Shown: piece after piece, positions 3,538 through 62,750 of the stretch
Layout: each line of letters starts with the position of its first letter
How positions within the stretch are numbered: the first letter of the stretch is position 1
DNA from: Patescibacteria group bacterium
GTDB lineage: Bacteria; Patescibacteriota; Patescibacteriia; UBA2591; JAQUPP01
Direction of reading: 5' to 3'
DNA length: 64,000 nucleotides
Assembly (NCBI GenBank): GCA_028716665.1
Contig: JAQUPP010000001.1
Span: forward strand, 477,046-541,045
The notes under the pieces: model-generated
Seen by the model: only the letters and a program-made list of their open reading frames with translations
What the model was told of the DNA's origin: nothing
Database searches by the model: none
Position numbers and translations under genes: made by a program

Positions 3538-3577
3538 AATTAAAAACCCTGCAATTTTTTTGCAGGGTTTTGTGTTT
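3538..3577. terminator. Bidirectional terminator hairpin, copy 2 of the 40-bp direct repeat (39/40 identical to copy 1)
   Basis: aattaaaaaccctgcaatttttttgcagggttttgtgttt lies immediately after the stop of the 3579..4298(-) gene. Confidence 0.6.
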
Positions 3578-3578
3578 T

Positions 3579-20239: not shown

Positions 20240-20395
20240 AAATGCAAAATGTAAATATCAAAAATCAAAATGACAATTCAAAATGTTAAAATTATTTCTT
20301 TCTATTTTTAATTTTACATTGTCATTTTACATTTTGATTTTTAAATTTTAAATTATTCCCGTTTTATAAAATAACTCATCTTATCTATCAATGTC

Positions 20396-20432: not shown

Positions 20433-20651
20433 ATGAGTATTGAACTTAAAAGAAAACCAAATGAATCCTTAAATATCTTTTTAAGAAGATTCAGCGAACG
20501 TATTAAAAGAAGCGGCGTACTTGACCTTGCCAAAAAGGGTCAATTTTATGTTAAACCGCAAAGTAAGCTTCTTCGCAGAGCAAGCGCTTTGTGCAGGAAA
20601 ACGTCTCGCGAGAAAATGGAATATTTAAGAAAACTTGGTAAAATTAAATAA
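20433..20651 (+). CDS. rpsU: 30S ribosomal protein S21
   Basis: 72-aa basic protein. ...FLRRFSERIKRSGVLDLAKKGQFYVKPQSKLLRRASA... matches the S21 pattern. It is followed by yqeY, the classic neighbour. Confidence 0.75.
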   Translation: MSIELKRKPNESLNIFLRRFSERIKRSGVLDLAKKGQFYVKPQSKLLRRASALCRKTSREKMEYLRKLGKIK

Positions 20652-20709
20652 AGAGTTTTGTCAAAACTTTCTCGGTTTCTAAATTTAATTTATTAATTAA
20701 TTTTTTAGT

Positions 20710-21188: not shown

Positions 21189-24100
21189 ATGAAAATTGAA
21201 ATAATTCGCCAAACAGCGAACAAAAAACAATTGAAAAAAAATATATTTTTAGGTTTTTTATGTTTATTGATGGTGTCCGGATTTTTATTTTTTATTTTAA
21301 GTCCGGTCATGACAAAAGCGCAAGAAATGAATAATGGTTTGGAAAATTTCCGCAGTGCGGCAAATTATGCCAATACTGATTTGCCGACGGCGATGGGAAG
21401 AATAATGAAAATTGTTTTGGGTGTACTCGGATTGGCGGCAACAGTTATTGTCATTATGGGTGGTTTTAAATGGATGACTTCGGGCGGAGATGAAAATAAA
21501 ATTTCTGAAGCCAAGAAATTAATGATGGCCGGCATTGTCGGCATTTTAATTATTGTTTTAGCTTACGCTATTTCCAGTTTTATTATCGGCAAACTTATGA
21601 GCGTAACTCCTCCTCCACCTCCTTGTGTGGGAAGTTCTTGTCTTAATAATCCATATAACCCTCTACCGGTAGATGTTTTTAAAGTTAAAAGAATTGAGAG
21701 CACCCACGGCAGTTCTTTGAAGGCAGGCTCTTTGCAGACAGATTATCATCAAGATGTTTATTTATGTTCGGCTGTCCAACCGATGTTTAATAATTGGATT
21801 AATGCGGAGGCAATTAAAGATTTGGCTCAGAATGATTTAAGAGTTGAAACAACAACAGGAGGCAATAAAATAAATGGCGAATGGCAAACCAGGGATGGCA
21901 TTATTATATTCAAGCATCAGGATTTATTTAACGAAAATACCGAATATACAACTTATTTGCCCAAAGCGATTCTGAATACAAGCAGTAAAACCTTGCAAGA
22001 TTGTTTGGCTAGCGGAACGGCTAACGGAAAATGTATAGAGAATGGAAGCTATTTTATTTGGAACTTTACAACCGGTACCACCACGGACAAAGTTGCTCCG
22101 ACCATTACTTCCGTTTATCCGATTTTAGACCAAACAAATAAACATTATCCGGATCAAAATGTCTCCCTTAAGCCGGCGATTGAAGTGAATTTTTCGGAAG
22201 CGATTGACGCCACTACAGTTATAGAAGAAGATAGTGTTAATCCGATTTCAGATAATATTTGGCTGGCTGAAATAGACAAACAAGGTGGCATAATTAAAGA
22301 AACTTTACTCCCCGAAGAATTTACAGTAAATATGAGTGATAATGGATTTAGATTAAATTTAAGCGATGCAAATTTATTAAAACCGTTTACATGGTATAGA
22401 ATTCATGTCAGCGATATTAAAGACCTTTGTTCAAATAAAATGGCCGCGGCAATGGAATGGGAGTTCCAAACCAATGATCGGGCACCCGGAATATCATCTG
22501 TCTATCCGGAAGGTAATAAAGTTTGTCTTGATTCTAATATTAGTATTGTCTTCAATACTCAAATGTATGACAATAATATAGACATAGAAATTAGTGATGG
22601 TGTCGATACTTTTACTACGAATATGACGCCAAGCGTTATCGGGGTGCCATATCAAAAAGTGATTACAGGCGGAATTTTTAAAGTGGACAATCCTAAAGAT
22701 CCGATTGATAACGGATTTAGGATTTTTACTTTTGAGCCGACTAATAATTTAAAAAGCAATACGAAGTATACGATAAAAATTAATACTGATTTGGTAATTG
22801 ACCAAAAAGGCGCTCTTTTAGCTCGCGAATGGAATTTTACGACCGCTACGCCGGAAACTTGTTTGTGTTCTCCTTGGATTTCTTCTTTGAATCCCGAACA
22901 AGGTTCAAATGGCCAATGTTTGACTATTAGCGGCGCCTGTTTTACTGGTACTGATTTACAATCTGCTGATCCGAAAATTGAATTTATCTTAAATAGTGTT
23001 TCTAAACCGGCAACAATTGGCGGAAAAGATAAAAATTATATTACTACCGTTGTCCCCTCAGATTATATAAAAAGCGATCAACCCCAAGTTCAAGTGACAA
23101 TTAAATATAGAACTGGAGGAGAAGAATTAGTTAGCAATCCATCCGAATTTACTGTTGATAGCGATGAAACAGCTACCGGTCCTTGTCTTTGGTCAATTAA
23201 TCCTTCCAGCGGTTATCCAAGTGAAACTTCAGTTAATTTAAGCGGTTTGCGTTTTGGCCCTGCTTCAGGTCAAACCACGCAACAAGTTAAATTTTATAAT
23301 AATCAATCAGCTTCTTTTAAAACTTGGTCAGATAACCTGATAGAAAAAACTTTGGTTCCAACGGATGCTGTGACCGGTAATGTCGCGATTATTAATGATG
23401 CAGGTACCAGTAATGGAATACCCTTTACAGTTTTACCGCATGTCGGATCGGCAGGATCTTTATGTCGAGCCAGCGAGTGTCCTTCTAATCCATTGAATAC
23501 TTGTACGGCTCCATATCAATGTAAAAATGAAAGTACTGACACTTGCCGCTGTTGTTGTGATCCAAAAAATGATTTATGCGCTTCACCACTTCATTGTTTA
23601 GCTGATCAAGGTAGTTGTAACAGCACTAGCGCAATCAATCCACGTGGTCTTTGTTGCGGTTGTACGGGAGATGATCAATGCGGCGCCGGCGCCGGTTGCG
23701 GGATGCTTGACTCAAATCGTTGCTGCTATAATCAGCCAACTGTTAAGATTTCTGCCTGCTCTAATCCTCAAAATCCTTCAAAAAAGATTGGCAACAATAC
23801 GGCTATTTCCATAATTTTCAGTGATCTAATGAATTATGGAAGTTTAAAAGAAGAAAATATTAAAATTTTTGAAGAAACAGCGGGAATTTGCAAACTTGAT
23901 AAAATTTGCGAACAAGAAACAAGTTGTAATTGTCAAGTTAAGAATGCGACAGTATGCACAGTCAATAAAAATAATAAAGAGTGTAATTATGAGCATATTC
24001 CTGTTCAGGGAAGAATTATTAATTCAGATGTTCAGAGAGAAGAAATATGTAAATTGGCTACTTTGAATTGTGATAAAGACAAAGGATGTGACTGCAAAAA

Positions 24101-27100
24101 TGGTAATAAAATAGTTTGCACGGTAAAAAAAGATAAAGATTCTTGTGCTTATTATGTTTCTGATCATACTGAAACTGTTTTTTATCCATCAGAGTGTAGG
24201 CTGGAAGAAGAGACTCTTTATAAAGTGACAATCAGAGGGGGGATTAACGGAAAAGGAATAATAAGCAAATCAGGTGTTTCCATAAAGGACAAGGAATTTA
24301 CGTTTACTACCGGAAATAAATATAATTTTTGCGACGTGGATCAAATTAAGGTTTCACCAGTTTCAACTATAATTAAGAGTTTTAAAGAAATAAAAAAATT
24401 TACTGCTCAGGCCAAAGATACAGAAAATAATTCAATTTGTGTTCCTGGATTTATTTGGGGTTTTCCCGATGATATAAATGTGGCAAATTATATAGAATCA
24501 TGCAGTCCTGCTAATTGTGATTGTATTAATTCTCAAGGACCCAGTTGCGCTAGAAATCTAAAAAAGGTTTTAATGAATCCTGCTATTGAAGCAAACGTTC
24601 AGGCGCAAGCTGAAGGAGCAACCGGAGTTTCTGCGTTTACTGCCGGAAAAAATGGCTTGGCAAATCTTGAAGTTGATTTAATTTCACCGGTGATTACGAG
24701 TATTAGTCCGGAGGAAGGCACTAATAATCCAATTATTCCAACTTATGTGACAATTACCGGAATAAATTTTGGTTCAAGTCAAGGCGAAAGTAAAATAATG
24801 TTTGGTAATGTGACTGCGGATATTGCTTGTCAGAATTGGTCTGACAAGAGTATTGTCGCCATTGTGCCGCCAAGTTTAGATAAAGGGTTAAATCAAGTGA
24901 CAATTTTTCAATCAGATCAGGGAGCGAGTAATCAGGTGGGTTTTAAGGTGCAAGATTCTTTTCATCCGGCGATTTGCAAGCTTCAACCGAATTTCGGTAA
25001 AACGGGCGACATTGTTTCTATAAATGGAAAAAATTTTGGAGATACGATGGCTAATAACGGTAAAATTATTATTGGAGATCCTTTAAATGGGGGAGTAGAA
25101 TTAGTGAAAACGGTAAATAATAAATCTAATCCTAATATTTTATCTTGGTCTAATCAGGAAATAAAAATAAAAATGCCTGAAGTTGCTCAAAATGAAGCTG
25201 AGGTGACTGTCTCGGTTCCTTCGCCGATTGAAGCCGGTAATCCTTTAAAAATTAGCAATCCCGTAACATTTCACAAAGCCCCGATAATTACGAGTATTAC
25301 GCCCGGTGATGGTCCGAAAAAAACATGGATAACAATTCATGGTTATAATTTCGGCTCTGTGAAGGGTGTAGTTTCTTTTAAATATAATAATACTAATTAT
25401 TCAGCTGCTGATTTACCAACTTACTGCGGATCGTCTTGGAGCGATACGCAAATTATAGTTGAAGCGCCGCAAATTTTGCCGGACGTGGCGACTGATCAAG
25501 ATTCTTATAATCTTCAAATTGAGGTTGATACCGATTATGGAATAGCCAGTCAGTCGGTTAAATGGACACTTAATAAAAAATTATTGGGTCCGGCGCTTTG
25601 CTCGATTAATCCGTCCAATGGCTGGCCGGGATTTAGTCCGGTTACGATTCAGGGTGAAAGATTTAATTTAGCCAGTGGCGAATCCGCCCGAAGTCTTGTC
25701 TTTAATAAAGACAAGGAAGCGGCAATTTTAACTTGGTCAACTGATGGCGCGATAAACAATATCGCTGTTCCGCAAGACGCAACCAGCGGCAATGTAGTGG
25801 TCACAAAAACAATTCAGACCAACAGCCGTCAAAAATGTATCGGTATTTCTTTTGGCGGAAAGTGTTTTGGTAAAAAGCAAACGGTTTGGGATGAAATTAA
25901 AATGACCAGTAATCCTCTTCATTTTAATATTGTTCCTTTGGGTGGTTGCGGTATTTTCGGCACTTTGGATACTCGAGACAGGGATCCGATTTTAGTTGGC
26001 GAAAAAGAGAATGAATATCCGCCTGTTAATCCTTTTGACAGCCAAAGTGTAGGAACGCTCGCTACTGACGGAAAATATCTTTACACAAAAAGTTGGTCAG
26101 GTTATGATCAATGGCCAAATGGAGTTTACGGATGTACTAATGGCAGCGGCTGTGAAGATAATATGATTAGTAAAATCGGTACCGGTTATCAAGGAACTGT
26201 GTCCGGTAAAATTTATAAAAAAGATTTGGCAACAGTCAATCACAGTCTTACAATGACTTATTTTCCTGATGATTGGCTTTATAACGGTTATACTAATAAT
26301 GGACATAATTTAGAAAGAGTGAATGTGATCACTGGTGCGGTTGATTATGTTGAGATTCCATCGTCAACGCCTTTAATGAATCGGGAAACCGGACGAGATT
26401 TAACTGAATTATATGAAGATCTTTTAATCACTTCTGACGGGAAATATGTTTATAATTTAGCTCATGGTATTAATGGCTCTTATTATAATGGTTTTAGAGT
26501 TAAAATTTTTGACCCGAATAAAAATTGGCAATTAGTGAAAGAATGGACTTCAATTGGTTCGGGCAGTTATATTCCATCTTTTTATACTGACGGTATTATT
26601 GCTGACGGAGACTATATTTATGCGATTCAATGGGGCACCGCAGGAGGCGGAGGTTATCTGATTAGAAAGATGGAGGCTCTAACCGGTAAAGTAATTGCCG
26701 AGTGGACGAGTGAACAAAAACAACTTAATAATCCGCAAGGTAAAAATACGGATATTATTTCCGGACAATATGATTGGGTTAATAATAAAGTTTGGTTGGG
26801 CGACTTGGTTGACCGTAGGAATGCCGATAATAAGTGCGACCAATGTTCGGGCTATTGTCATTGCACTCCGGCTTATATTTATCGTTATGCTTGCCAGGGA
26901 GCAGGTCAGTTGGGCTTACCTCAAGTAATTGGAGATGCCAATTGCGAAACTAATCTTCCGAGTCCTTCACCGGCTGCGGATCTATCCGCTGTTTGCTCTA
27001 ATGCCGTTATCAGTGCGCGTTTTAATCAAAAAGTGAGCGGTTTGACTCCTTTAAATATTCTAGTTCAAAAATGCAATAATGGTTCAGATAATTTTAACTC

Positions 27101-30100
27101 TCAAAATTGTACTGCCGACGTGGCAGGTAGTATTTCTTTAGACAGTTTTAATAGTCAAGGTTTTATTTTTACGCCAACTAATAATTTAGACGCGAATTAT
27201 TGGTATCAGATTACGTTAAAAAGCGGTTCCACCGGAATTAAAAATCTTAATAATTATTCTTTGGATGGCAATAAAAATAATATTCAAGACGGCGAGGATA
27301 ATTATTTTTGGCATTTTAAAACAGGATCAAATCTTTGTTCGCCCGAGAAAGTTAAAATATCTGAAACAGTACTAGTCGGTGAAAAAGCGGGAATAATTAT
27401 TAAACCAGGAACTAGAAATTATTTTGCTCAAGCTTTTGGTCCAAATTGTCAAATTCTAAAATCCGCCAGTTTTTCATGGACTTGGACCTCGACAAAATCT
27501 GAATTTGCCACAGTCGGCAGTTCGGTTAACAATCAGACAACTGCGACAGGAGTTGATTTGGGAGAAACAGATATAACCGTAACAACAACTCAGCCGGATC
27601 CTTCTGATGCCACTAAAGAAATTAAATTATCAAATAAGACCCATTTGATTGTTGCTACTAGGCCAACAGCAATAAATTATCCAGCGGTTGGCAGTACTAA
27701 TATTTGTCTTAATACTTCAATCTCCGCTACTTTTGACCAATTAATGGATGGATCCACGCTTAATTCAAAGACAATTAAATTTTATAAAGTAGTTCCCGAT
27801 TTGGATGAAGAAGAAGAAGGATCTCCGCTTTCATTTAACCAAAATATTAATAAAAATATTTTGGTTAGATTTTTTAATAATTTAAAAAATGTTTTTCTAA
27901 AGAAAACTGAAGCGGCGGAAAAAATTAATATTTCCGTGGTTGATGATGCAAAACAAACTAAAGTTTATTTAAACATTGATTTATTAGATGAAAAGAGTAC
28001 TTATAAAATAGAAATTCTTGGGGGAGAGAATGGCGTAAAAAGTAAATATGGCATTGGGATGACAGCAGATAAATCTTGGACGTTTATCACCGGCAAGGAA
28101 ATTTGTAAATTGAGTGAGGTAAAAACATCCATAACCGGCAATTCTGAAAAATGTACGGTTGGCGCGGATAAAAAATCGGCAGAATGTTCCAAGGAAAATT
28201 CAACAGTTAATTTTAAAGCTATTGCCAAAAATAATAGAGGAGAAGAAATTCAAAGCGTGACCGGTTATCAGTTGGCTTGGTCATGGAAATCTTCTGATAC
28301 AAATGTGGCGACTATTTCTAACACAGTTAATAATGCTGTTGCTACGGTGAAAAATAAAAATGGTTCAGCCCAAATTACGGCCACGGCTGAAATAACGGGG
28401 GGGAAAGAAAAAATTTCCAATAGTGCGTCAATTAAAGTTTTCCTTTGTGAAGTTCCATGGATTTTTGAAGATAAACTCGGTCAAGCGGAGACGAAAGAGC
28501 CTTATACTAATTTCAGATTGCAATATTGCCAGGGAGATTTAAAGAAAAATTTGGTTTCTAATGGAAGTTTTGAAATAGATAAAACCAAAGATGGCATTCC
28601 CGATAATTGGTTAAATCATGGTAAAGAATATAGTACTGATGGTAAAAATAGTTATTCCGGTAAAGCGGCTATCAAGCCGGGTTATTCATGGTGCCAACCC
28701 AGTGATTCATCTGTTATGCAATATGACATTACTATAAAACCAAATACTTTTTATACGTTTTCAGCTTATGTTAAGGGTGAAAATATATATGCGCCGCGCA
28801 TAGATATAAGATTTTATCATGATATTTCCGAAGATCCTCATCAATTTTCCAATAATTGCGCTTGGTATAATGGTGGAGTAGATAAGGCTGATATAAATTG
28901 CAGTTTTTCCGGTGTTTTGGATAAAGATAGTTACAAACGAATTTATTTTACTTTTAATTCCGGATCGAATGATAAAATTCAATATATATCCCTCCAAGGC
29001 GTGGGAGGCGTTTGCAACCCGGCCCAAGCTTGTAATTGTGGAAATTCTTCAGGAAAACCTTGTGATGCCAGTGCGTGTCCGCGCGTAGTTTGGTTCGATA
29101 ATCTCCAATTGGAAGAAGGTAAACAACCAAGTGAATATCAGGATTTTCCATCCTTACCGTATCTTGTCGCAACCGAGACTACGAAATCAAGCGTAGTTAA
29201 AGAATTTATTTTTACCAATAGTGTTAATAATGACGTGATTGGTCTCAAGGTTTTAAAAAATCCTGATTATCTCACTCCTTTTGAATGGTATAAGAAAAAT
29301 GTACCCAATCCCGGTTCACCGACTTCATTAATTGTTAATGGTTATCAGGCGGTTAAAGAAGGAAGAACGGTTTATGTCGGCGCGACAAATGTTGATAATA
29401 ATGAAATAATTGAAGGTCTGATTTATCTCATCTCATATTCTGATAACGCCAAGCCGGAAACAATTGATATTTTTAATAAATTAGTTGAAGATTGGCAATT
29501 TAATACAAATAAAACTGTTGATAAACAACTGATCCAACGGGATTTGTTCCGACTTTATGATTTAAGAACAATGAGCCAAAAATTGGCGGATTATAAATCA
29601 AATTATGATTATTATCCAAAACTTGAGTCGGGCAGTTTTATGAAAGGAATAACCGATTCCAAATGGCCTTCTTGGAAAAATCCTCAAGGGCAATTTATTT
29701 CCAGTATGCCGAATGATCCGATTAATCAATTCTTAAACCCGACAAGCGGTTATTGCGCCGGTTGCAATAATGCTAGCCAATGCGATGGAACATGTTATAA
29801 TCAAAGTACGAGTAAATACGAGTGTCCGGTCGGTTCGCACGTTTATCAATACATGGTTAAAGATGGAGGGGCGGATTATAGTTTGTATTTGAATTTTGAG
29901 ACAGATTCTTTGAAATGGCAGAAAAGTTGCAGCGGCATGGATCAATCCAACTGTGAAATTCATTATTTATGCGGTTGGGCGGCCAATAAATGTCAGTCAA
30001 AATTATTCGGTTATAGCTCAGATATTTACAAATGTTTTGATTCTGTCTATGGTCCGGTTATTGGGAAAACAATAATAGATTCATATGGATCTATTAGCGG

Positions 30101-30125
30101 AATGAATACTAATTATCAGCAATAA
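21189..30125 (+). CDS. Giant multi-domain extracellular protein (2978 aa) with an N-terminal pilin-like two-TM hairpin, Ig-like/IPT domains, a Cys-rich module, a beta-propeller-like region, BIG2-like domains and a CBM/laminin-G-like domain
   Basis: A single ORF with no SD. The N-terminus is ...IVLGVLGLAATVIVIMGGFKWMTSGGDENKISEAKKLMMAGIVGILIIVLAY. Cys-dense segments include CRCCCDPKNDLCASPLHCL. An IPT-like segment is PVITSISPEEG...ITGINFG. The CBM-like segment runs GSFEIDKTKDGIPDNWLNHG...VWFDNLQLEEG. Confidence 0.8.
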   Translation: MKIEIIRQTANKKQLKKNIFLGFLCLLMVSGFLFFILSPVMTKAQEMNNGLENFRSAANYANTDLPTAMGRIMKIVLGVLGLAATVIVIMGGFKWMTSGGDENKISEAKKLMMAGIVGILIIVLAYAISSFIIGKLMSVTPPPPPCVGSSCLNNPYNPLPVDVFKVKRIESTHGSSLKAGSLQTDYHQDVYLCSAVQPMFNNWINAEAIKDLAQNDLRVETTTGGNKINGEWQTRDGIIIFKHQDLFNENTEYTTYLPKAILNTSSKTLQDCLASGTANGKCIENGSYFIWNFTTGTTTDKVAPTITSVYPILDQTNKHYPDQNVSLKPAIEVNFSEAIDATTVIEEDSVNPISDNIWLAEIDKQGGIIKETLLPEEFTVNMSDNGFRLNLSDANLLKPFTWYRIHVSDIKDLCSNKMAAAMEWEFQTNDRAPGISSVYPEGNKVCLDSNISIVFNTQMYDNNIDIEISDGVDTFTTNMTPSVIGVPYQKVITGGIFKVDNPKDPIDNGFRIFTFEPTNNLKSNTKYTIKINTDLVIDQKGALLAREWNFTTATPETCLCSPWISSLNPEQGSNGQCLTISGACFTGTDLQSADPKIEFILNSVSKPATIGGKDKNYITTVVPSDYIKSDQPQVQVTIKYRTGGEELVSNPSEFTVDSDETATGPCLWSINPSSGYPSETSVNLSGLRFGPASGQTTQQVKFYNNQSASFKTWSDNLIEKTLVPTDAVTGNVAIINDAGTSNGIPFTVLPHVGSAGSLCRASECPSNPLNTCTAPYQCKNESTDTCRCCCDPKNDLCASPLHCLADQGSCNSTSAINPRGLCCGCTGDDQCGAGAGCGMLDSNRCCYNQPTVKISACSNPQNPSKKIGNNTAISIIFSDLMNYGSLKEENIKIFEETAGICKLDKICEQETSCNCQVKNATVCTVNKNNKECNYEHIPVQGRIINSDVQREEICKLATLNCDKDKGCDCKNGNKIVCTVKKDKDSCAYYVSDHTETVFYPSECRLEEETLYKVTIRGGINGKGIISKSGVSIKDKEFTFTTGNKYNFCDVDQIKVSPVSTIIKSFKEIKKFTAQAKDTENNSICVPGFIWGFPDDINVANYIESCSPANCDCINSQGPSCARNLKKVLMNPAIEANVQAQAEGATGVSAFTAGKNGLANLEVDLISPVITSISPEEGTNNPIIPTYVTITGINFGSSQGESKIMFGNVTADIACQNWSDKSIVAIVPPSLDKGLNQVTIFQSDQGASNQVGFKVQDSFHPAICKLQPNFGKTGDIVSINGKNFGDTMANNGKIIIGDPLNGGVELVKTVNNKSNPNILSWSNQEIKIKMPEVAQNEAEVTVSVPSPIEAGNPLKISNPVTFHKAPIITSITPGDGPKKTWITIHGYNFGSVKGVVSFKYNNTNYSAADLPTYCGSSWSDTQIIVEAPQILPDVATDQDSYNLQIEVDTDYGIASQSVKWTLNKKLLGPALCSINPSNGWPGFSPVTIQGERFNLASGESARSLVFNKDKEAAILTWSTDGAINNIAVPQDATSGNVVVTKTIQTNSRQKCIGISFGGKCFGKKQTVWDEIKMTSNPLHFNIVPLGGCGIFGTLDTRDRDPILVGEKENEYPPVNPFDSQSVGTLATDGKYLYTKSWSGYDQWPNGVYGCTNGSGCEDNMISKIGTGYQGTVSGKIYKKDLATVNHSLTMTYFPDDWLYNGYTNNGHNLERVNVITGAVDYVEIPSSTPLMNRETGRDLTELYEDLLITSDGKYVYNLAHGINGSYYNGFRVKIFDPNKNWQLVKEWTSIGSGSYIPSFYTDGIIADGDYIYAIQWGTAGGGGYLIRKMEALTGKVIAEWTSEQKQLNNPQGKNTDIISGQYDWVNNKVWLGDLVDRRNADNKCDQCSGYCHCTPAYIYRYACQGAGQLGLPQVIGDANCETNLPSPSPAADLSAVCSNAVISARFNQKVSGLTPLNILVQKCNNGSDNFNSQNCTADVAGSISLDSFNSQGFIFTPTNNLDANYWYQITLKSGSTGIKNLNNYSLDGNKNNIQDGEDNYFWHFKTGSNLCSPEKVKISETVLVGEKAGIIIKPGTRNYFAQAFGPNCQILKSASFSWTWTSTKSEFATVGSSVNNQTTATGVDLGETDITVTTTQPDPSDATKEIKLSNKTHLIVATRPTAINYPAVGSTNICLNTSISATFDQLMDGSTLNSKTIKFYKVVPDLDEEEEGSPLSFNQNINKNILVRFFNNLKNVFLKKTEAAEKINISVVDDAKQTKVYLNIDLLDEKSTYKIEILGGENGVKSKYGIGMTADKSWTFITGKEICKLSEVKTSITGNSEKCTVGADKKSAECSKENSTVNFKAIAKNNRGEEIQSVTGYQLAWSWKSSDTNVATISNTVNNAVATVKNKNGSAQITATAEITGGKEKISNSASIKVFLCEVPWIFEDKLGQAETKEPYTNFRLQYCQGDLKKNLVSNGSFEIDKTKDGIPDNWLNHGKEYSTDGKNSYSGKAAIKPGYSWCQPSDSSVMQYDITIKPNTFYTFSAYVKGENIYAPRIDIRFYHDISEDPHQFSNNCAWYNGGVDKADINCSFSGVLDKDSYKRIYFTFNSGSNDKIQYISLQGVGGVCNPAQACNCGNSSGKPCDASACPRVVWFDNLQLEEGKQPSEYQDFPSLPYLVATETTKSSVVKEFIFTNSVNNDVIGLKVLKNPDYLTPFEWYKKNVPNPGSPTSLIVNGYQAVKEGRTVYVGATNVDNNEIIEGLIYLISYSDNAKPETIDIFNKLVEDWQFNTNKTVDKQLIQRDLFRLYDLRTMSQKLADYKSNYDYYPKLESGSFMKGITDSKWPSWKNPQGQFISSMPNDPINQFLNPTSGYCAGCNNASQCDGTCYNQSTSKYECPVGSHVYQYMVKDGGADYSLYLNFETDSLKWQKSCSGMDQSNCEIHYLCGWAANKCQSKLFGYSSDIYKCFDSVYGPVIGKTIIDSYGSISGMNTNYQQ

Positions 30126-30154: not shown

Positions 30155-30760
30155 ATGCCAGATGAAATAAAAAATTTAGATGCGGATTTTGCCAATCAAG
30201 ATGGGGGAGTGGAAGATATTTTTGAGGATGTTGAGCGTAAGAATTTTATTTCTGATGAAAATAAAAATTCCGACAATTCATCGTCAAATCGCAAGAAATT
30301 CAATAAGAATTTTGTCCGTGTTGTTTTTATTATTATCATTATCGCGATTGTCGGGGCGGGAGTTTATTATTACGCTTTGCCGAAAATAAAAAATTTAATG
30401 GAACAGGCAAAAATAAAAAAACTCAATCAGACCGGGCAGCCTCAAGCAAATTCGGAAGACAAGACGGCGCCGATAATCATTATTAAGCCGATTGAAATGG
30501 CTCCTGATGCGGATGGTGACGGCTTGACGGATGAAGAAGAAATCACACTGGGCACTGATAAAAATAAATCTGACACTGATAACGATGGTCTTTCCGACCG
30601 AGAAGAAGTTAAAGTTTATTTAACAAATCCCTTAAAACTTGATACTGACGGAGACGGCATTAAAGACAGTCAGGAAATTAAAAATAATACTGATCCGAAT
30701 AATTCAAACCCAAACGCCAAATTATTGGATTTACAAAAAGAAATTGATAAATTAAAGTAA
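30155..30760 (+). CDS. Single-pass membrane protein with thrombospondin type-3-like Ca-binding Asp repeats
   Basis: Acidic N-terminal cytosolic segment, then a TM helix, then DADGDGLTDEEE...DTDNDGLSDREE...DTDGDGIKDSQE repeats. Confidence 0.6.
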   Translation: MPDEIKNLDADFANQDGGVEDIFEDVERKNFISDENKNSDNSSSNRKKFNKNFVRVVFIIIIIAIVGAGVYYYALPKIKNLMEQAKIKKLNQTGQPQANSEDKTAPIIIIKPIEMAPDADGDGLTDEEEITLGTDKNKSDTDNDGLSDREEVKVYLTNPLKLDTDGDGIKDSQEIKNNTDPNNSNPNAKLLDLQKEIDKLK

Positions 30761-30762
30761 AG

Positions 30763-30945
30763 AGTTTTGTTGAAAATTTAGAGGCTGAAAGCCGAATAAA
30801 TTATCATTACAAAACCTTTACCCCCTCCTTTTGAGTGCTTTTAAATTTATGTATTACGTTCTATTTCATAAAATTACAAAAAAACCATATATTGGTTTTT
30901 CGCAAATCTAAAAAAATAATCAAAAGCATCTAAAAGGAGGGGGTA
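30763..30945. repeat. Structured intergenic repeat element, copy A (outer AGTTTTGT/ACAAAAC arms, inner GNRA hairpin, then a 14-bp CCCCCTCCTTTT/AAAAGGAGGGGG stem closing a ~100-nt loop)
   Basis: The motif taaagagttttgt...acaaaacctttaccccctcctttt ... aaaaggagggggtactcaaa is shared with 61681-61845. Confidence 0.6.
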
Positions 30946-31086
30946 CTCAAATTATTAATAAAATTTTTCGCGTTATTGCCAAGCGAGCGAGGGAAAAGAA
31001 AATTTATTTTCTTTTTCGAGCAAGCGCAGGCAACACAGATTTAATAATCTTTATAAATAACTTAAAAATTTTAAAAAATTTGGTAT

Positions 31087-43213: not shown

Positions 43214-43262
43214 TTATAGATTTGTTAAATAAAAAAATAAGGTGCCAGTTAAAATTTGAACT
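43214..43262. terminator. Bidirectional terminator hairpin
   Basis: AAAAAAATAAGGTGCCAGTTaaaatttgAACTGGCACTTTATTTTTTT. Confidence 0.7.
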
Positions 43263-43282
43263 GGCACTTTATTTTTTTATCT

Positions 43283-48128: not shown

Positions 48129-48149
48129 GATGCACGGTTTTTGTAAAAG

Positions 48150-48182
48150 AGGGGTATAGGCGCCTACCCCTCTTTTTTATTT
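48150..48182 (+). terminator. Rho-independent terminator
   Basis: AAAGAGGGGTAGGCGCCTACCCCTCTTTTTT. Confidence 0.8.
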
Positions 48183-48227: not shown

Positions 48228-48235
48228 TTAACAGC

Positions 48236-48628
48236 AGACTGGATAATTGCCCCCCACCACTTTTAGACCTTATTTATGTTTATTTATTATAGAGTCTAAA
48301 AGTGGTGCGGGGAGGAAAGTCCGAACACTTCCCTGGCTTTAGTCAGGGAGCAGGGTAGCGGGTAACGCCCGTCCACAGTAATGTGAGAGGTGCGAACAGT
48401 GACGCCGCAATCCGAAAGGGTTGAGGCTTCCGAACTTGTTCGGAAGAATCCCAAAAGTAATTTTGGGAGTGAAACGGCCAAATCCTTACCTGAGTGAAAG
48501 ACCAAAGGCTTTGTGCTTTGCACAAGGCAAGGTAGGTCGCCAGAACCTTGATGTAAATCAGGGTCCAGATAAATAATTATCGCCTTTCGGGGTACAGAAT
48601 TCGGCTTATAGGTCTACAACAAAAAAAT
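48236..48628 (+). ncRNA. rnpB: RNase P RNA (bacterial type A)
   Basis: The P4 strands GGAGGAAAGTCCGAAC and ACAGAATTCGGCTTA are universally conserved. GGGTAACGCCCGTCC (P10-P12 region). A 15-bp P3 hairpin with an AT-rich loop lies at 48256-48312. A terminator hairpin follows at 48629-48660. The ends are approximate. Confidence 0.8.
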
Positions 48629-56494: not shown

Positions 56495-56601
56495 AATGTT
56501 AATTTTTTTAGGCGAGGGTTATATCGCGAGAAAAGCGTTTCGCAGGCCGAAGCGGTCCGCCAGCTGGCGGAGTCTTTTTGAGCGATTGTGACCCGAGCCC
56601 G

Positions 56602-57744
56602 TTACTTGATAATTTTTATATTAATTTTATCCAGAGAAGTCGGCGCTTTTTTTAAGAAGGGCGGCCAAAATTTTACTTGGACTTTTTTGATTAAAATGTC
56701 GCCGTCTTTCAAAGAAGAAAAATAATTTTTAATTTCAGTGGAATTTAATCCTCTAAGATGATTTTTTTCCAAGATTTGATTTTCCGAATTAATAACCATG
56801 GATCCGCGCATTTGGATTTGGATATCAGCGGTTTGTTTATTTGTGTCGTAATTAAGCAAACGATAAGACAAACTGGCCGGTTCATAAGATAAAAATTCTT
56901 TTCCTTGAGGAATTTTTTTCTTTAAAGCATTTAAAGCAATATCTAAAACTTTTTTTTCATCAAAAGCCGCTGCGCCTATTTTAATTTTTTCAGAAACAGT
57001 AAATTCGGTTTTTTCTTCATTGGGTTTGGCATCGCAAGATTCTTGCAAAACAGTTGACTTGGTGACAATTTTAAAATCAGATTGAGGAACTTGATTCTCT
57101 ATTTCGATCATTCCTTTCTTGGAAAGTTTATCGCTCAAATCTTGTTTTAAGTCATCAATATCAGAGGCCATTATTATGCCGGCTTTTTTCAGACCGCCGG
57201 TCATCGCTTTTTCGCTTACAACTGATATTTTTTTTATCAGATCAGCGCTTTTTAAATTAGGGACAGTAAACGTGGATGGCCCGATTTCATAAGCCGCGCC
57301 CATTTTATCCGCCCGTACCATGGCTTTCATTTTGCCTTTGGCGGGAATTGAAGTTTGTTTTTCCAATCTAAAAACCAGGCCGTCAGGAGACAAGAAGCGG
57401 GTTGTGGCAATAAAATTTACTGACGAAGCAGTATTATTGGTAATAATCACTTCTCCTTCGGCAAAATCTTCGGCCGAGACCGTAGATTTAGGTTGGCCTT
57501 TTTCTTCTGATTCCTGGGTATTTTCCAGAATGGTCGCCTGAATAGAATCTGAATTAGAAGAAACAGCAGATTGAGCTTTTAAAGTCATATCAAGATCAAT
57601 TTCCTCGGGTTCTGGCGTAAGGGTGATTGTGACTCCATACGAAGCGACAAATAATCCCCAAATTAAACCAATAATCATTAAGGCTACCAAAATGAAAAAT
57701 ATGTAGCTGATTTTTTGATGAGGAGAAATGAAAATTGTTGGCAT
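56602..57744 (-). CDS. Hypothetical membrane-anchored exported protein (380 aa)
   Basis: An N-terminal TM helix and a Lys/Ser/Thr-rich ectodomain. No recognisable family. Confidence 0.5.
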   Translation of the reverse strand: MPTIFISPHQKISYIFFILVALMIIGLIWGLFVASYGVTITLTPEPEEIDLDMTLKAQSAVSSNSDSIQATILENTQESEEKGQPKSTVSAEDFAEGEVIITNNTASSVNFIATTRFLSPDGLVFRLEKQTSIPAKGKMKAMVRADKMGAAYEIGPSTFTVPNLKSADLIKKISVVSEKAMTGGLKKAGIIMASDIDDLKQDLSDKLSKKGMIEIENQVPQSDFKIVTKSTVLQESCDAKPNEEKTEFTVSEKIKIGAAAFDEKKVLDIALNALKKKIPQGKEFLSYEPASLSYRLLNYDTNKQTADIQIQMRGSMVINSENQILEKNHLRGLNSTEIKNYFSSLKDGDILIKKVQVKFWPPFLKKAPTSLDKINIKIIK

Positions 57745-57897
57745 ACTAAAATTATTTAAAAATTAAGTTTGAGCTCTGCGAAAACGCAAAATTTTTAACT
57801 ATAATTTTGTGTACCCGCCCAGATTTTTGGATATTTAATTATTATTTTTTAAGATAACTTGATTTTTTTAATAATCCAAAAACTTGGGCGGGTGAAT

Positions 57898-57933
57898 GTT
57901 TTGTTGTTCCGACTTAACGTCCGGAGACAAAAC
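57898..57933. repeat. Hairpin element (GTTTTGT-TTCCGAC-ttaac-GTCCGGAG-ACAAAAC), an inverted copy of 61681-61717
   Basis: The reverse complement matches agttttgtctccggacgttaagtcgga(g/a)c(t/a)acaaaac at 61681. Confidence 0.6.
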
Positions 57934-57953
57934 TATTCATATTATACCATTTT

Positions 57954-60900
57954 TTACGATTTAAGCAACAACTCGTCCAATTTATGTTTGTTTATTTCTT
58001 TTACTTCTTCAGCGATTAATTTAGGCACTCCGTCTTTATCTGAAACGCGGCCGGTAACGGAAACTATTTTATTTTCTTGCCATAGGTTGGGATTTTCTTT
58101 GTATAGGTTGGGGAAAACAATAACTTCTATATCGCCGGTATGATCTTCCATCTTTACGAAAAGCATCATTTCTTTCTTCGCCGTAATGATTTTTTTAATT
58201 TTACCAACCAAACCGATAATTTTAACGCTTGAATTATTACTTATTTTCCCAATCGGAATTGAATATTTTTTTAAAATTTCGCTGTATTCCTGTAAGGGAT
58301 GCTCGGAAATGAATAATCCCAACAATTCTCTTTCCCAAAGAAGTTTTTGCTGATGTTCGGTGGGCGGCACAGTTTGAAGTTTTAAACCCATTGTTTGTCC
58401 GACTGATGTTGCCCCGAATAAATTTGATTGGCCGTTTTCTTTGTCTTTTTGATTTTGCTTGGCGAATTCCAATATATTTTCCACATTGCCAAGAAGTTGT
58501 CCGCGTTCGCCGAAATAATCCATGGCTCCGCTTTTTATCAAACTTTCTATGGATTTTTTATTCAGATCTTTTGTTTGGACGCGATTTAGAAAGTCTTCCA
58601 AGTTTTGATAGGCGCCGTTTTCTTGAAGTTGTTCAATAATTGTTCTCACTATTCCGGTGCCGATATTTTTAACCGCCAAAAGTCCGAATCTGATTTTATT
58701 TTTATCAGTAACCGTAAAATTTTCAAAACTTTCATTGACATCAGGCGGCAGAATTTCAATTTTCATTTTTTTGGCATCTTCCACCAGAATGGAAATTCTA
58801 TCAGTGTCGTTTTGATCAGAGGTAAGCAAGGCAGCCATAAATTCAGTGGGGTAATTGGCTTTTAAATAAGCGGTTTGATAAGCAATAACGGCATAACAAG
58901 TAGCGTGAGCCAAATTAAAACCATATCCGGCAAAAGGTTCTATAAAAGCGAAAATATTTTCCGCTGTTTCTTTGGGAATTTTATTTTTTACGCATCCGCT
59001 GACAAATTTTTCTTTTTGTTCTTTAAGCAAGGCGGGAATTTTTTTACCAACCGCTTTTCTTAAAACATCAGCTTCTGATAAAGTAAAACCGGCTAAGTCG
59101 CGGGCGATTTGCAATAATTGTTCCTGATATACGGCTACGCCATAAGTTTTTGCCAAAATAGGTTCCAGTTTCGGATGCAAATAAGAAATGGTTTTCAGAC
59201 CGTGTTTTCCGGCAATATAATCTGGGATAAGCTCCATTGGTCCGGGGCGGTACAGGGCCACCATGGCAATAATATCTCTTAAATCAGTCGGTTTTAATTG
59301 TTTTAAATAACGTCGCATTCCGTCACTTTCTAATTGAAAGACGCCGGTACATTCTCCTTTTTTTAATAAAGAAAATGTTTTTTTGTCATCAACGGGAATT
59401 TTATTAATATCAATTTCTTTTTGTTGTGTTTTTTTGATAATTTTAAGCGCAGTTTCAACGACAGTTAAATTTTTTAGACCCAAAAAATCAATTTTTAACA
59501 ATCCAAGATTTTCAATGGCATGCATTTCATATTGAGAAATAACCGTTTTTTCATCACCGGAAATATCATATTGAACTGGAAGATAATGATCTAATGGTTT
59601 TTGTGTGACTACAACGCCGCAGGCATGTTTTGAAGCATGGCGGCAGACGCCTTCCAATTTTATGGCAATGTCAATAATTTTTTTGGCGTCAGCATTGCTG
59701 CTGTAAAAAGATTTTAAATCACTGGCTTTATCCAAGGCATCTTTAAGATTGGTTCCAAAAGGAATCATTTTTGCCAATTGATCGCAGAAAGAATAGGGAA
59801 TATCCAAAACTCGGCCCACATCTCTGATTCCGGCTCGGGCAGCTATGGTTCCAAAAGTAATAATTTGGGCAACATGATCGTGTCCGTATTTTTGTTCAAC
59901 ATAATTAATAACTTCATCGCGTCGCGTATCAGCGAAATCCAAATCAATATCAGGCATGACAATACGATCAGGATTAAGGAAACGCTCAAAAATAAGTTCA
60001 TATTTTATGGGATCAATATCAGTGATGTTTAAAATATAAGAAATAATTGAACCGGGCGCGCTGCCTCGTCCGGGACCGACGATTATTTTATTTTCTTTGG
60101 CCCAATTGACGAAATCTTGAACGATTAAAAAGTAAGAAGCAAAGCCGGTTTTTTCAATAACAGAAAGTTCGTAATTGAATCTTTCCAAAATACTTTTATC
60201 AGGATTCGGATAATGGTGATCCATTCTTTCTTGACATAATTTTTCCAAATATTGATTGGCGGTTTGTCCTTCAGGAATAGGGAAATGGGGGAGCTGGACT
60301 TTTCCGAGTTCAATTTCCACATTGCACGCTTGGACGATTTTTTCGGTATTTTCTACGGCTCCGGGATAATCTTTAAAATCTTCAATCATTTTTTCCGGCG
60401 AACGAAAAGAAAAATCATCGAAAAGCATAGACATCCGATTTTGGTCGGTTTTTTTCTTCTTGGTTTGAATACAAAGCAAAATATCTTGAATTTCCGCGTC
60501 TTCTGATTTCACATAATGCACGTCATTTGTCGCTACCAATGGGACGTCGTATTTTTGCGATAATTTCAAAAGAGTTTTATTGACTTTTTCCTGTTCCGGA
60601 CTATTGGGATGACATTGAACCTCTAAATAAAAATCTCCCGGCGCGAAAATTTCTTTGTATTTTAAAATAATTTGCTCAGCTTTTTCCAGCTGATTGTTAA
60701 GAATTGATTGAGGAATTTCTCCTTGAAGACAAGCAGTCAGGGCAATAAGTCCGGACGAATGTTTAATCAGTGTTTCATGGTCAATTCTCGGTTTATAATA
60801 AAAGCCCTCCAAGTGGGCAATGGTTGTTAGCTTGATTAAATTTTTATATCCTTCCTGATTTTTTGCCAAGAGAACCAAATGATATGGTTTTTCGTCTATT

Positions 60901-61136
60901 CTTGATTTTTTATCCAATCGGCTGTGCGGGGCAACATAAGCTTCTACACCGATAATCGGTTTAAGTCCGGCTTTTTTCGCTTTTTGATAAAATTCAATCA
61001 CGCCGTACATTACGCCGTGATCGGTTAGTGCCAAAGCGGTCATCTCATATTTTTTCGCTTCGGCGATCAGATCATCAATTTTCGGCAAACCGTCCAAAAG
61101 CGAATAATGGCTATGAATGTGCAAATGAGAAAACAT
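57954..61136 (-). CDS. dnaE: DNA polymerase III alpha subunit
   Basis: N-terminal PHP domain (HLHIHSHYSLLDG), polymerase core, HhH and OB domains. Confidence 0.9.
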   Translation of the reverse strand: MFSHLHIHSHYSLLDGLPKIDDLIAEAKKYEMTALALTDHGVMYGVIEFYQKAKKAGLKPIIGVEAYVAPHSRLDKKSRIDEKPYHLVLLAKNQEGYKNLIKLTTIAHLEGFYYKPRIDHETLIKHSSGLIALTACLQGEIPQSILNNQLEKAEQIILKYKEIFAPGDFYLEVQCHPNSPEQEKVNKTLLKLSQKYDVPLVATNDVHYVKSEDAEIQDILLCIQTKKKKTDQNRMSMLFDDFSFRSPEKMIEDFKDYPGAVENTEKIVQACNVEIELGKVQLPHFPIPEGQTANQYLEKLCQERMDHHYPNPDKSILERFNYELSVIEKTGFASYFLIVQDFVNWAKENKIIVGPGRGSAPGSIISYILNITDIDPIKYELIFERFLNPDRIVMPDIDLDFADTRRDEVINYVEQKYGHDHVAQIITFGTIAARAGIRDVGRVLDIPYSFCDQLAKMIPFGTNLKDALDKASDLKSFYSSNADAKKIIDIAIKLEGVCRHASKHACGVVVTQKPLDHYLPVQYDISGDEKTVISQYEMHAIENLGLLKIDFLGLKNLTVVETALKIIKKTQQKEIDINKIPVDDKKTFSLLKKGECTGVFQLESDGMRRYLKQLKPTDLRDIIAMVALYRPGPMELIPDYIAGKHGLKTISYLHPKLEPILAKTYGVAVYQEQLLQIARDLAGFTLSEADVLRKAVGKKIPALLKEQKEKFVSGCVKNKIPKETAENIFAFIEPFAGYGFNLAHATCYAVIAYQTAYLKANYPTEFMAALLTSDQNDTDRISILVEDAKKMKIEILPPDVNESFENFTVTDKNKIRFGLLAVKNIGTGIVRTIIEQLQENGAYQNLEDFLNRVQTKDLNKKSIESLIKSGAMDYFGERGQLLGNVENILEFAKQNQKDKENGQSNLFGATSVGQTMGLKLQTVPPTEHQQKLLWERELLGLFISEHPLQEYSEILKKYSIPIGKISNNSSVKIIGLVGKIKKIITAKKEMMLFVKMEDHTGDIEVIVFPNLYKENPNLWQENKIVSVTGRVSDKDGVPKLIAEEVKEINKHKLDELLLKS

Positions 61137-61202
61137 ATTTTTTATAGTTTATATAGTTTTTAGTTGATAGTTATGGTTATTCAGTTATTAGTTAAAAACC
61201 AA

Positions 61203-61244
61203 CTCCGACGTTTCGGTCGGAGCTCCGACCCATTGGCGTCGGAG
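61203..61244. repeat. Tandem pair of hairpins with an identical CTCCGAC/GTCGGAG stem
   Basis: CTCCGAC-gtttcg-GTCGGAG immediately followed by CTCCGAC-ccattggc-GTCGGAG. Confidence 0.6.
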
Positions 61245-61254
61245 AAACCAAAAA

Positions 61255-61551
61255 CTATTTTTTATTTTCGTTATTTTCGTTATTTTCTTTTTCTTCTTTT
61301 TTTGCTTTAACAAAAGAGAATATTTCTTTTAAGCCTTGAGTAACCAAGCCCATAAAAGCGAGGGAGGTTACTTTCTCTTTTATTTTATCCATGGTATCTT
61401 CGGCTTTTTTGGAAACATTTAAAAATCGGCCGGCGGCTTTAGCGATTCTTATAGCAATAACCACGGCGATAATGCCCAAGAGAATATAAAAAAAAGCTAT
61501 AAAAATAACAGCGACGCTGGTGGTGATATAGAAAAGATTTTGACTGGCCAT
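61255..61551 (-). CDS. Small membrane protein (N-terminal TM, amphipathic/charged C-terminus with ENNENNENK)
   Basis: 98-aa ORF. The 3' end contains a 9-bp x3 tandem repeat (cgttatttt). Confidence 0.5.
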   Translation of the reverse strand: MASQNLFYITTSVAVIFIAFFYILLGIIAVVIAIRIAKAAGRFLNVSKKAEDTMDKIKEKVTSLAFMGLVTQGLKEIFSFVKAKKEEKENNENNENKK

Positions 61552-61680
61552 ATGATTTTTTTTGATTATTATTTTATTAAAATAAACATTATTTGACCTG
61601 TCTTAATTTTAGTCCTTAAATAGAAATTTTGCAATACCCATTGCCATATTTTAGCATATTTGTTAAAATAATTATAAAGA

Positions 61681-61845
61681 GTTTTGTCTCCGGACGTTAA
61701 GTCGGAGCTACAAAACCTTTACCCCCTCCTTTATCCCAACAATAAACTTTTGATAATCATTAGGGTAAAAGGCGAAGCCGCTTCGCTTACATAAGATTAT
61801 AAATCAATAGACCTTCGATGGAGTAAAGGAGGGGGTACTCAAAAT
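61681..61845. repeat. Structured intergenic repeat element, copy B (AGTTTTGT-CTCCGGAC-gtta-AGTCGGAG-ct-ACAAAAC, then a 13-bp CCCCCTCCTTT/AAAGGAGGGGG stem)
   Basis: It shares arms and stem sequences with copy A at 30763-30945. Both lie upstream of SD-less genes with the start context aaaaaattt(t)ggtATG. Confidence 0.6.
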
Positions 61846-61895
61846 TTTAGTAAAAATTTATTCAACTTCGTCTCTAAATTTTAAAAAATTTTGGT

Positions 61896-62750
61896 ATGGG
61901 AGAAAATATTATTTTCAAACAACTTAGGGCCGCTCAATGGTTGCTGGCGCACAAAAAAGATATCCGCAAAGCCAAGGTGATTTTTCTAATTATTTTGAAC
62001 GCGGTTTTTTGGGGGATTGCCATTTGGCAGGGTATAATATATTTTACTTTAACCAAGAGCCATCAAGAAATGTTAGTGGAATTGACCAAAGAAAGAATTG
62101 ATTGGACCAGTATGCATGAGCATTTCAAACCGCAAGACATCGTGATCAGTAATGAAACCGCTATTTTGACTTTGGCCAATGGACAGGAGTCGCAATATGA
62201 TTTTGTGGTTCAAGCGCAAAATTTAAATGAAAAATGGATGATGTCTTCCATTGAATATTATTTTACTTTTAATGGCGGCCAAACGCTTGTGAAAAAAAGT
62301 TTTATTCTTCCTGATGAAAAAAAATATCTTTTTATTTTGGGTCAAAAAAATGCCTCTTCAGAAGATGTTAATTTTCAAATTTCAAAAATCAATTGGCAAA
62401 GAATTCGCCATCCTCGTGAAGCCAATTTGGAGATTTTATCAAAACTGATTATTCATGATCCTCAATTAAATTTAGTTATGACTTCTCAGGGTGTTGAATT
62501 CCCTCAAATTTCATTTACCGCCGAAAATCAATCAGTTTATGATTTTTGGGAAATTAATTTTACAATTGCACTTTATCAAAATTCAAGAATTGTCGGCATC
62601 AATACTATTCCGCTCCAATATTTTAAAAATGAAGAAAAGAAAATTATAGAATTACCTTGGGGGAAAATTGCGCCGCAAGCAACCAGTGTCGATATCAGGC
62701 CGGAAGTCAATGTTTTGGATTTAAGTGTTTTTATGCCGCCTAGTTTTTAA
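61896..62750 (+). CDS. Hypothetical membrane-anchored protein (284 aa)
   Basis: N-terminal TM after a ~25-aa basic segment. No SD. Its 4-bp gap to the SEDS gene suggests an operon. Confidence 0.5.
   Translation: MGENIIFKQLRAAQWLLAHKKDIRKAKVIFLIILNAVFWGIAIWQGIIYFTLTKSHQEMLVELTKERIDWTSMHEHFKPQDIVISNETAILTLANGQESQYDFVVQAQNLNEKWMMSSIEYYFTFNGGQTLVKKSFILPDEKKYLFILGQKNASSEDVNFQISKINWQRIRHPREANLEILSKLIIHDPQLNLVMTSQGVEFPQISFTAENQSVYDFWEINFTIALYQNSRIVGINTIPLQYFKNEEKKIIELPWGKIAPQATSVDIRPEVNVLDLSVFMPPSF

Follow-up and report, generated by a model that had tools for sequence, protein, structure and literature searches.

A 64,000-nt stretch of the Patescibacteria contig JAQUPP010000001.1 (referred to below as the window, and numbered from its own first base) contains three full copies, A, B, and C (Table 1), of an intergenic element built from three hairpins: a left module (P1), a long central hairpin (P2), and a right module (P3). 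Copy B, upstream of the start codon at 61896, belongs to a previously uncatalogued repeat family. The family is probably a multi-copy, mosaic, palindromic, and insertion-polymorphic set of intergenic repeats of Parcubacteria-group Patescibacteria, mainly selfish or neutral, of the same kind as miniature inverted-repeat transposable elements (MITEs), bacterial interspersed mosaic elements (BIMEs), and the hairpin-forming doublets of repetitive extragenic palindromes (REPs) known as REPINs. Patescibacteria have tiny, tightly packed genomes that are usually described as repeat-poor; here a structured repeat has been gained or lost at gene junctions between strains. It provides a new marker for genome dynamics among strains of uncultured bacteria and is a likely source of annotation errors in the form of long "empty" intergenic regions, mis-called starts, and false noncoding RNA calls.

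In the time that strains take to diverge, elements are gained and lost at the DNA level. Scanning metagenomes with DnaE yielded orthologous DNA, loci L047 and L049 (loci outside the window are given such numbers), with ~91% nucleotide identity and the same gene order. In L047, which like the window reads thrS - 380aa - dnaE - 98aa - 284aa - ftsW, copies B and C are missing, as is a pair of tandem CTCCGAC hairpins found upstream of dnaE in the window, where it forms a 49-nt insertion relative to L047. The empty B site reads ...TTGTTAAAATAATTA-C-ATGGGAG, and the gap is exactly the 221 nt of copy B; no target-site duplication is visible at this clean site, nor would one be resolvable at 9% divergence. 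At the C site L047 has a 48-nt spacer and L049 an unrelated one of ~110 nt, and at the A site three further loci (L128, L129, and L130) have only TAA-ATAATTTTACT(AT)-ATG. The junction between the 380-aa gene and thrS is found in three states: 5 nt in L047 (7364-7377), a 107-nt spacer with a CCGCCAGCTGGCGG hairpin in the window (56495-56601), and in L049 a full element (3530-3678), unrelated to the window spacer, that abuts TAA and ATG exactly and has a compensated P1 (UAAC/GUUA).

Copy B runs in the order AGTTTTGT-CTCCGGAC-gtta-AGTCGGAG-ct-ACAAAAC-cttt-ACCCCCTCCTTT ... AAAGGAGGGGGT-ACTCAAAA ... ttttggtATG. This is the layout given in the first-pass annotation of this DNA, except that AGTTTTGT starts at 61680, not 61681, that the element begins 5 nt earlier with TAAAG, and that it continues right up to the start codon. 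Its minimum-free-energy fold (-67.7 kcal/mol, z = -5.2) has three abutting helices. P1 consists of an outer helix UAAAG/CUUUA, a bulged A, GUUUUGU/ACAAAAC, and a tip hairpin CUCCGGAC-guua-AGUCGGAG. P2 is a long stem, CCCCCUCCUUU.../...AAAGGAGGGGG, with a variable interior; the GGCGAAGC-cg-CTTCGC hairpin recognized earlier is present in the same fold, inside this stem. P3 opens with UAC/GUA, which includes the A of the AUG, followed by CAAAAUUUU/AAAAUUUUG and an inner helix. A pair between G61835 and U61897 would compete with P2.

The other two copies follow the same plan. Copy C, read on the minus strand, is TGAAT-A-GTTTTGT[CTCCGGAC-gtta-AGTCGGAA]ca-ACAAAAC-A-TTC-ACCCGCCCAAG...CTGGGCGGGT-ACACAAAATTAT...ATAATTTTAGT-ATG, ending at the start codon of the 380-aa gene (57744-57742). 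The first pass had correctly noted that the first hairpin of copy B recurs in reverse complement (57898-57934, 35/37 bases identical) and had rightly seen both a structured element and a recurring CTCCG(G)AC/GTCGGAG unit; that the hairpin downstream of dnaE is the P1 of a third full copy had been missed. In copy A, the TAA at 30758-30760 is the stop codon of a 201-aa gene, and the ATG of a 528-aa gene follows at 31087. There are three matches to AGTTTTGT-N8-38-ACAAAAC in the window (30763 and 61680 on the plus strand, 57934 on the minus strand) against 0.01 expected, and TACCCCCTCCTTT and its complement pair at 30819/30945 and 61720/61837. A covariance model of the left module (R1) found nothing else convincing in the window save a miniature remnant at 20646. 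An A/T-rich imperfect inverted repeat with 47-nt arms (20238-20357) lies ~290 nt before this remnant.

An exact-pattern scan of one genome per species gave 44 loci, of which ~37 are real, nearly all in metagenome-assembled genomes (MAGs) of Patescibacteria; records with the element include Minisyncoccales, Liptonbacteria, Sungiibacteriota, and Paceibacterota. R1 recognized 49 sense copies in 267 kb of the pattern-hit loci, some of them outside the search pattern and with compensatory P1 changes (GTTTTCT/AGAAAAC, AATTTTGT/ACAAAAT, GTCTCGGC/GCCGAAAC). Overall, the three-hairpin architecture was seen at ~50 places in ~20 MAGs of the Parcubacteria group, with element lengths of 121-336 nt (median ~189). 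No copies without P2 were found, the sampling pattern itself demanding ACCC, and viral contigs gave chance matches only. With Rfam 15 the window returned RNase P RNA only, with nothing better than E = 0.3 at 61560-61960, and 16 element-bearing loci returned only tRNAs, with no family at gathering threshold for the element; permissive Rfam thresholds and a tRNA/tmRNA search likewise gave no match at the element. No description of it was found in the literature on Patescibacteria/Parcubacteria repeats and RNA motifs, as far as that literature was covered.

The consensus is TAAAG-A-GTTTTGT[P1]ACAAAAC-C-TTTA followed directly by CCC[P2]GGG and T-R-C..[P3]..G-Y-AT(G). In helical terms, P1 is UAAAG/CUUUA, a bulged A, GUUUUGU/ACAAAAC, and a variable tip; P2 is CCC.../...GGG, with arms that covary over at least five arm types; and P3 is U-R-C/G-Y-A, CAAAnUUnU/AnAAnUUUG, and a variable interior, with TGCGTT conserved in its loop. 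The helices abut with no linkers between them. Over 27 full elements, 97.1% of the cells of 35 core pairs are paired, as against 84% in shuffles and 33-52% in slid controls, and 20 of the 35 pairs have changed on both sides; on no measure did any of 500 shuffles equal the real core structure. Compensatory variants of the P1 of copy B in other copies include GAAG/CTTC, GAAT/ATTC, TAAC/GTTA, GTCTCGGC/GCCGAAAC, and GATTTTGT/ACAAAATC. By RNAalifold, the R following GGGU pairs with the Y preceding AUG (GC 13, AU 12), and the start codon contributes its A and U to pairs with the U and last G of GGGU; of these, the G-U pair competes with P2. Covariation thus shows that a single three-way junction of the fold brings the stop codon, in UAAAG/CUUUA, together with two bases of the start codon, A and U, in GURC/GYAU. 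An alternative pairing that would free the start codon (GCTCAATG/CATTGAGC) is limited to one P3 subtype (L004, L010, L030, L040) and is not general.

Elements are precisely registered with the genes around them. P1 starts with the stop codon (TAA or TGA at -5) of a long upstream open reading frame (ORF) in 27 of 42 copies; in L038 the stop is TGA and the partner strand is CTTC. Two copies start flush behind a tRNA, and one ends just ahead of a tRNA. At the right end, 31 of 33 copies abut an ORF of at least 60 codons or one running off the locus, and the remaining two precede ORFs of 50-52 codons. All copies share a single orientation, with the left end flush with a stop codon, tRNA end, or promoter start and the right end flush with a start codon. 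The downstream genes are unrelated: three membrane-anchored proteins in the window and, elsewhere, ribosomal proteins S13 (rpsM), L25, S7, and L33 as well as ParA, MurA, QueA, and Tmk. Every element-associated gene lacks a Shine-Dalgarno (SD) sequence, which other genes in the window do have. The family offers a natural experiment on how much structure a leaderless or SD-less start tolerates.

As DNA, the element has the character of a palindromic mosaic. Its core helices are almost wholly Watson-Crick (8 G-U and 15 A-C among 925 cells, with no excess of G-U), and either strand folds as well as the other. P3 is a diverged inverted copy of P1: in reverse complement, the right module gives 26-38 bits with R1, and a GAG...CGAA loop motif that is sense in P1 is antisense in P3. 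P2 arm types have been shuffled with respect to the P1 and P3 types; the interior of the copy B P2 is 80-85% identical to those of non-orthologous copies (L024:6256-6486, L028, L005), and the two-hairpin interior of CCCTGTTAAAT-type P2 is found both ways round (L043 and L044 vs. L015 and L026). The CTCCGAC hairpin stands alone at 61203-61244 and also forms P1 tips, and the perfect palindrome CCGCCAGCTGGCGG turns up within plain spacers (56557-56570 in the window), P1 tips, and P3 loops (L006, L019, L022, L025, L026, L036, L037, L051). Watson-Crick purity, inverted modules, a flipping interior, and recurring palindromes are signatures of mosaic palindromic repeat DNA rather than of a classical functional RNA.

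Two smaller units deserve mention in their own right. The CCGCCAGCTGGCGG palindrome looks like a second REP-like unit, and elements of one and the same MAG (L006:1717-2019, L025, L036, L022) have a further repeat unit (...AAACTAARAnTTAATTGTCTAAATAATATAA...AAATTATCTATCGCC...) nested within them, some in the P2 interior and others in the P3 loop.

In L019 and L023 the P2 loop holds an ORF of 76-85 aa for a GIY-YIG protein (PF01541, E = 4e-10 and 1e-16). In L113 (2702-3006), and also in L114, a GIY-YIG ORF lies between 21-nt inverted repeats, ACCCCCCACCACTTTT/AAAAGTGGTGGGGGGT, with TTTAC on either side, in a cassette inserted behind codon 3 of dnaE; an in-frame ATG at 2941 within the L113 cassette could restore translation, giving DnaE a 20-aa N-terminal extension. 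The small GIY-YIG nuclease gene is a candidate for the mobilizing enzyme, a lead rather than a demonstration, and such nested genes suggest an unrecognized way of mobilizing hairpin DNA.

Comparison with known systems places the element closest to mosaic and miniature repeats without matching any of them fully. Like BIME, REP, and REPIN sequences of Enterobacteria and Pseudomonas, it is a mosaic of short palindromic units, some in inverted pairs, and is strictly intergenic, multi-copy, strain-variable, and probably co-transcribed with its neighbors. It differs from these in having three hairpins, distinct left and right ends, a fixed orientation to the downstream gene, stop and start codons built into its terminal helices, and junction sequences common to several candidate phyla. 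No gene for a REP-associated tyrosine transposase (RAYT) was identified in the window or the 8-kb loci, a genome-wide protein scan not having been made. With MITEs such as the Neisseria Correia elements, ERIC/IRU, and pneumococcal RUP and BOX, it shares a size of 100-300 nt, an overall inverted-repeat build, the usual lack of an ORF, predicted transcription into hairpin RNAs, and presence/absence polymorphism (three noncoding copies in 64 kb, all absent at orthologous sites). Neither a target-site duplication nor identical terminal inverted repeats could be found (the right module resembles the reverse complement of the left, with the outermost 6-8 nt differing). Unlike MITEs, it is not found in both orientations and has insertion points registered to the nucleotide with start codons.

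Other systems are more distant. Palindrome-associated transposable elements (PATEs) derived from IS200/IS605, which move by single-strand "peel and paste," also have hairpin-containing ends, an orientation bias, and no obvious target duplication, and TTAC adjoins both the empty B site (AATTAC-ATG) and the P1/P2 junction (CTTTAC-CC). However, no Y1 transposase was seen, the hairpins extend to the very ends rather than being subterminal, the T of TAAAG is all that 42 copies have in common in their left flanks, and TTAC as a target occurs only at the empty B site. The GIY-YIG ORFs in central hairpin loops (L019, L023) and the similar hairpin-flanked cassette at the dnaE 5' end (L113, L114) recall free-standing or intron-borne homing endonuclease cassettes, but most copies of the element have no ORF and are dispersed to many unrelated junctions instead of homing to one allele. 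A group I intron is not indicated: Rfam gives no Intron_gpI match, and the ORF in L023 and L113 takes up the whole hairpin loop, so that a ribozyme core would not fit. Intercistronic RNA hairpins, such as the RNase III sites of phage T7 or those in structure-mediated translational coupling, are similarly long and stable, with a start codon in a helix beside the upstream stop; those are fixed and gene-specific, whereas this element is dispersed and dispensable, and cleavage or coupling here is putative. A riboswitch or gene-specific leader is likewise not indicated: the downstream genes are unrelated, the conserved positions are in helices and junctions, and the element is dispensable between strains. 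T-boxes, retron msr/msd, attC sites, 6S RNA, and omega RNA were rejected, there being no defining partner gene or motif.

As a mosaic repeat, an element comprises a left hairpin module, a central long hairpin with interchangeable arms and interior, and a right module, and it probably originated by nesting of small palindromes, among them the CTCCGAC and CCGCCAGCTGGCGG hairpins and ACCC...GGGT hairpins. Given its registration with stop codon, tRNA, or promoter start on the left and start codon on the right, it would be transcribed in the leader of the downstream gene or as an intercistronic spacer. The geometry of the three-way junction may allow an insertion to occupy a very compact junction without uncoupling the neighboring genes. 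Several observations weigh against so simple an account. Strict orientation and single-nucleotide registration with stop and start are unexpected for a purely selfish insertion and are signs of selection for a role at the level of RNA or expression. Some diverged MAGs have kept their elements at orthologous junctions (ahead of murA in L016 and L027; also L018 and L021), and junction sequences are conserved across several candidate phyla, although the invariance of P1a and ACCC is partly built into a sample collected by sequence pattern. No target-site duplication, defined terminal inverted repeat, or transposase has been identified, and the outermost ends differ (TAAAGAG vs. the reverse complement CATRCCAA), unlike those of classical MITEs. 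Finally, the empty sites at A and C look like element ends (TAAATAATTTTACTATG, ATAGTTTTAAAAAC), so that loss instead of gain is possible for those two.

A less likely possibility is that the element is instead a functional cis-acting RNA leader or intercistronic element, with mobility secondary. The three-way junction would sequester the start codon and couple it to the upstream stop or 5' end, controlling or enabling the translation of genes without an SD, either through coupling as ribosomes unwind P1 or through processing that yields a leaderless mRNA. The fixed orientation and exact registration, the covarying pairs of the A and U of AUG, the consistent lack of SD sequences, and the retention at orthologous murA junctions all fit. 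So does the position of copy B, exactly between promoter and ATG of a gene predicted to be leaderless in L047: the promoter-like TTGCCA-17-TGtTAAAAT is there 6 nt from the ATG, hence the prediction, and in the window the transcription start predicted from the matching site (Table 1) is at ~61676, the first bases of copy B. On the other hand, the same genes do without the element in sister strains, they have nothing in common as a set, and one copy precedes a tRNA. Nor would an RNA function predict the lack of G-U enrichment and strand asymmetry, a loop motif that is sense in P1 and antisense in P3, or a P2 interior that flips orientation. A possible translational or processing role of the fold is the most interesting question raised. 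Should the fold truly link stop to start codons, it would be relevant to how bacteria re-initiate translation and initiate it on leaderless mRNAs.

A further, though unlikely, idea is that the element is a mobile insert made expression-silent by its RNA fold. The junction would splint the stop codon or 5' end onto the AUG, allowing re-initiation or leaderless-like initiation over a ~200-nt insert, or the insert would be cut out beside the AUG by a host nuclease or by itself, restoring a leaderless mRNA. If true, it would amount to ribosome shunting in a bacterial form, or to a transposable repeat carrying a new RNA processing signal.

It is quite unlikely that the element is a portable terminator-plus-promoter cassette, in which P1 and P2 would end upstream transcription and the A/T-rich 3' strand of P3 (TAAAAT/TAANAA, 6-8 nt before ATG) would act as a -10 box giving near-leaderless transcripts. 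Its placement flush with ATG and also before a tRNA gene, the conserved TGCGTT in the P3 loop, and the resemblance of its right end to the native promoter of the empty B site (TAAAATAATTAC-ATG vs. TAAAAAATTTTGGT-ATG) speak for such a cassette. However, consensus scans gave no promoter within copy B or copy C, the -10-like box lies at a variable distance of 17 to 25 nt from TGCGTT (an internal promoter in P3 was rejected on these grounds), GC-rich variants have no credible -10 box, and the GURC/GYAU covariation needs a transcript or single strand across the whole of P3. An intrinsic-terminator scan of 57600-62000 flagged none of the P1, P2, or P3 hairpins of copies B or C. It did flag the tandem CTCCGAC hairpins on the minus strand, the only ones that resemble an intrinsic terminator. 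The pair follows the 98-aa ORF, its insertion boundaries being ambiguous by a few nucleotides; the terminator-like site (61224-61201) is followed by GGTTTTTAAC, and the pair has TTGGTTTTT after it.

The least probable reading, and a very improbable one, is that an inverted hairpin pair delimits the ~3.3-kb dnaE segment as a mobile or invertible unit or a terminator pair. The first pass had proposed such bracketing, with possible rearrangement, and the observations behind it are sound: hairpins at 61688-61707 (plus strand) and 57907-57926 (minus strand) are inverted copies on either side of dnaE (minus-strand ORF, 57954-61136), the second of them just downstream of it as described, and the CTCCGAC/GTCGGAG stem does occur twice in tandem just upstream, at 61203-61244, against 0.00 expected. 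But each hairpin of the inverted pair is the P1 tip of a separate full element serving a different gene (the downstream one belongs to copy C and the next gene), and the three sites are independent insertions. L047 has the same gene order without any of the hairpins, the very finding that had been named in advance as refuting the proposal. In 596 kb around dnaE of 80 relatives, the only R1 match is the L049 copy, at another junction. With synteny maintained without hairpins and a single match among the relatives, the hairpins have no special relation to dnaE.

Two resemblances were also set aside. An anti-SD reading of TACCCCCTCCTTT/AAAGGAGGGGGTA fails because other copies have unrelated P2 arms (CCCTGTTAAAT, CCCGCCCAG, CCCAGCACC) and there is no start codon at SD spacing; AGAGTTTTG is like the 16S 5' end, and its opposite strand like boxA, but both likenesses were judged coincidental.

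Table 1. Copies of the three-hairpin element, their parts, and related sites in the window.
Feature	Position	Strand	Basis and remarks
Copy B, whole element (221 nt)	61675..61895	+	From T of TAAAG to T preceding ATG at 61896
Copy B P1	61675..61721	+	Covariance model R1, 65.5 bits, E = 1e-14; pair counts
Copy B P2	61722..61835	+	Inverted repeat I4 plus fold
Copy B P3	61836..61897	+	Alignment A4, RNAalifold; counts on alignment A5; start codon 61896-61898
Copy A (329 nt)	30758..31086	+	R1, 71.9 bits; P1 30758-30820, P2 30821-30943, P3 30944-31086
Copy C, whole element	57745..57939	-	R1, 56.4 bits; P1 57939-57893, P2 57893-57813 (arms = inverted repeat I9), P3 57813-57743
Tandem CTCCGAC/GTCGGAG hairpins	61199..61247	-	Pattern matches; separate 49-nt palindromic insertion, not a full element
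Miniature or decayed left module TAAAGAGTTTTGTCAAAACTTT	20646..20679	+	R1, 16.2 bits, E = 0.07; weak match; upstream of gene at 20710
Promoter-like site TTGCCA-17-TG-T-TAAAAT	61641..61669	+	Consensus scan, 10/12 matches plus TG; consensus match only

Some other palindromic features of the window were noted. The RNase P RNA (class A, 121 bits; 48231-48624, plus strand) has its P3 hairpin lengthened by ~40 nt, especially at 48250-48312. This hairpin and the GIY-YIG cassette in L113 (2711-2725) have the same arm, CCCCCCACCACTTTT, which may reflect nesting of a palindromic unit or a chance likeness among C-rich P3 stems. Directly upstream of the RNase P RNA gene, the palindrome AAAAGAGGGGTAGGCGCCTACCCCTCTTTTTT (48144-48179) looks like a bidirectional terminator. 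Loop-less palindromes are found at 1219-1254 and 43229-43280; one of the two is perfect (18+18 nt, TACACTTATTTCACACGG/CCGTGTGAAATAAGTGTA) and the other has arms of 26+26 nt that are 92% complementary.

The window also has two giant ORFs on the plus strand, of 2314 aa (4603-11547) and 2978 aa (21189-30125). The latter has Pfam matches to T4SS_pilin (weak), Big_5, and TIG and is followed by genes for two TSP3-repeat proteins, mreC, and a penicillin-binding protein gene. These matches and neighbors suggest a cell-surface gene cluster.

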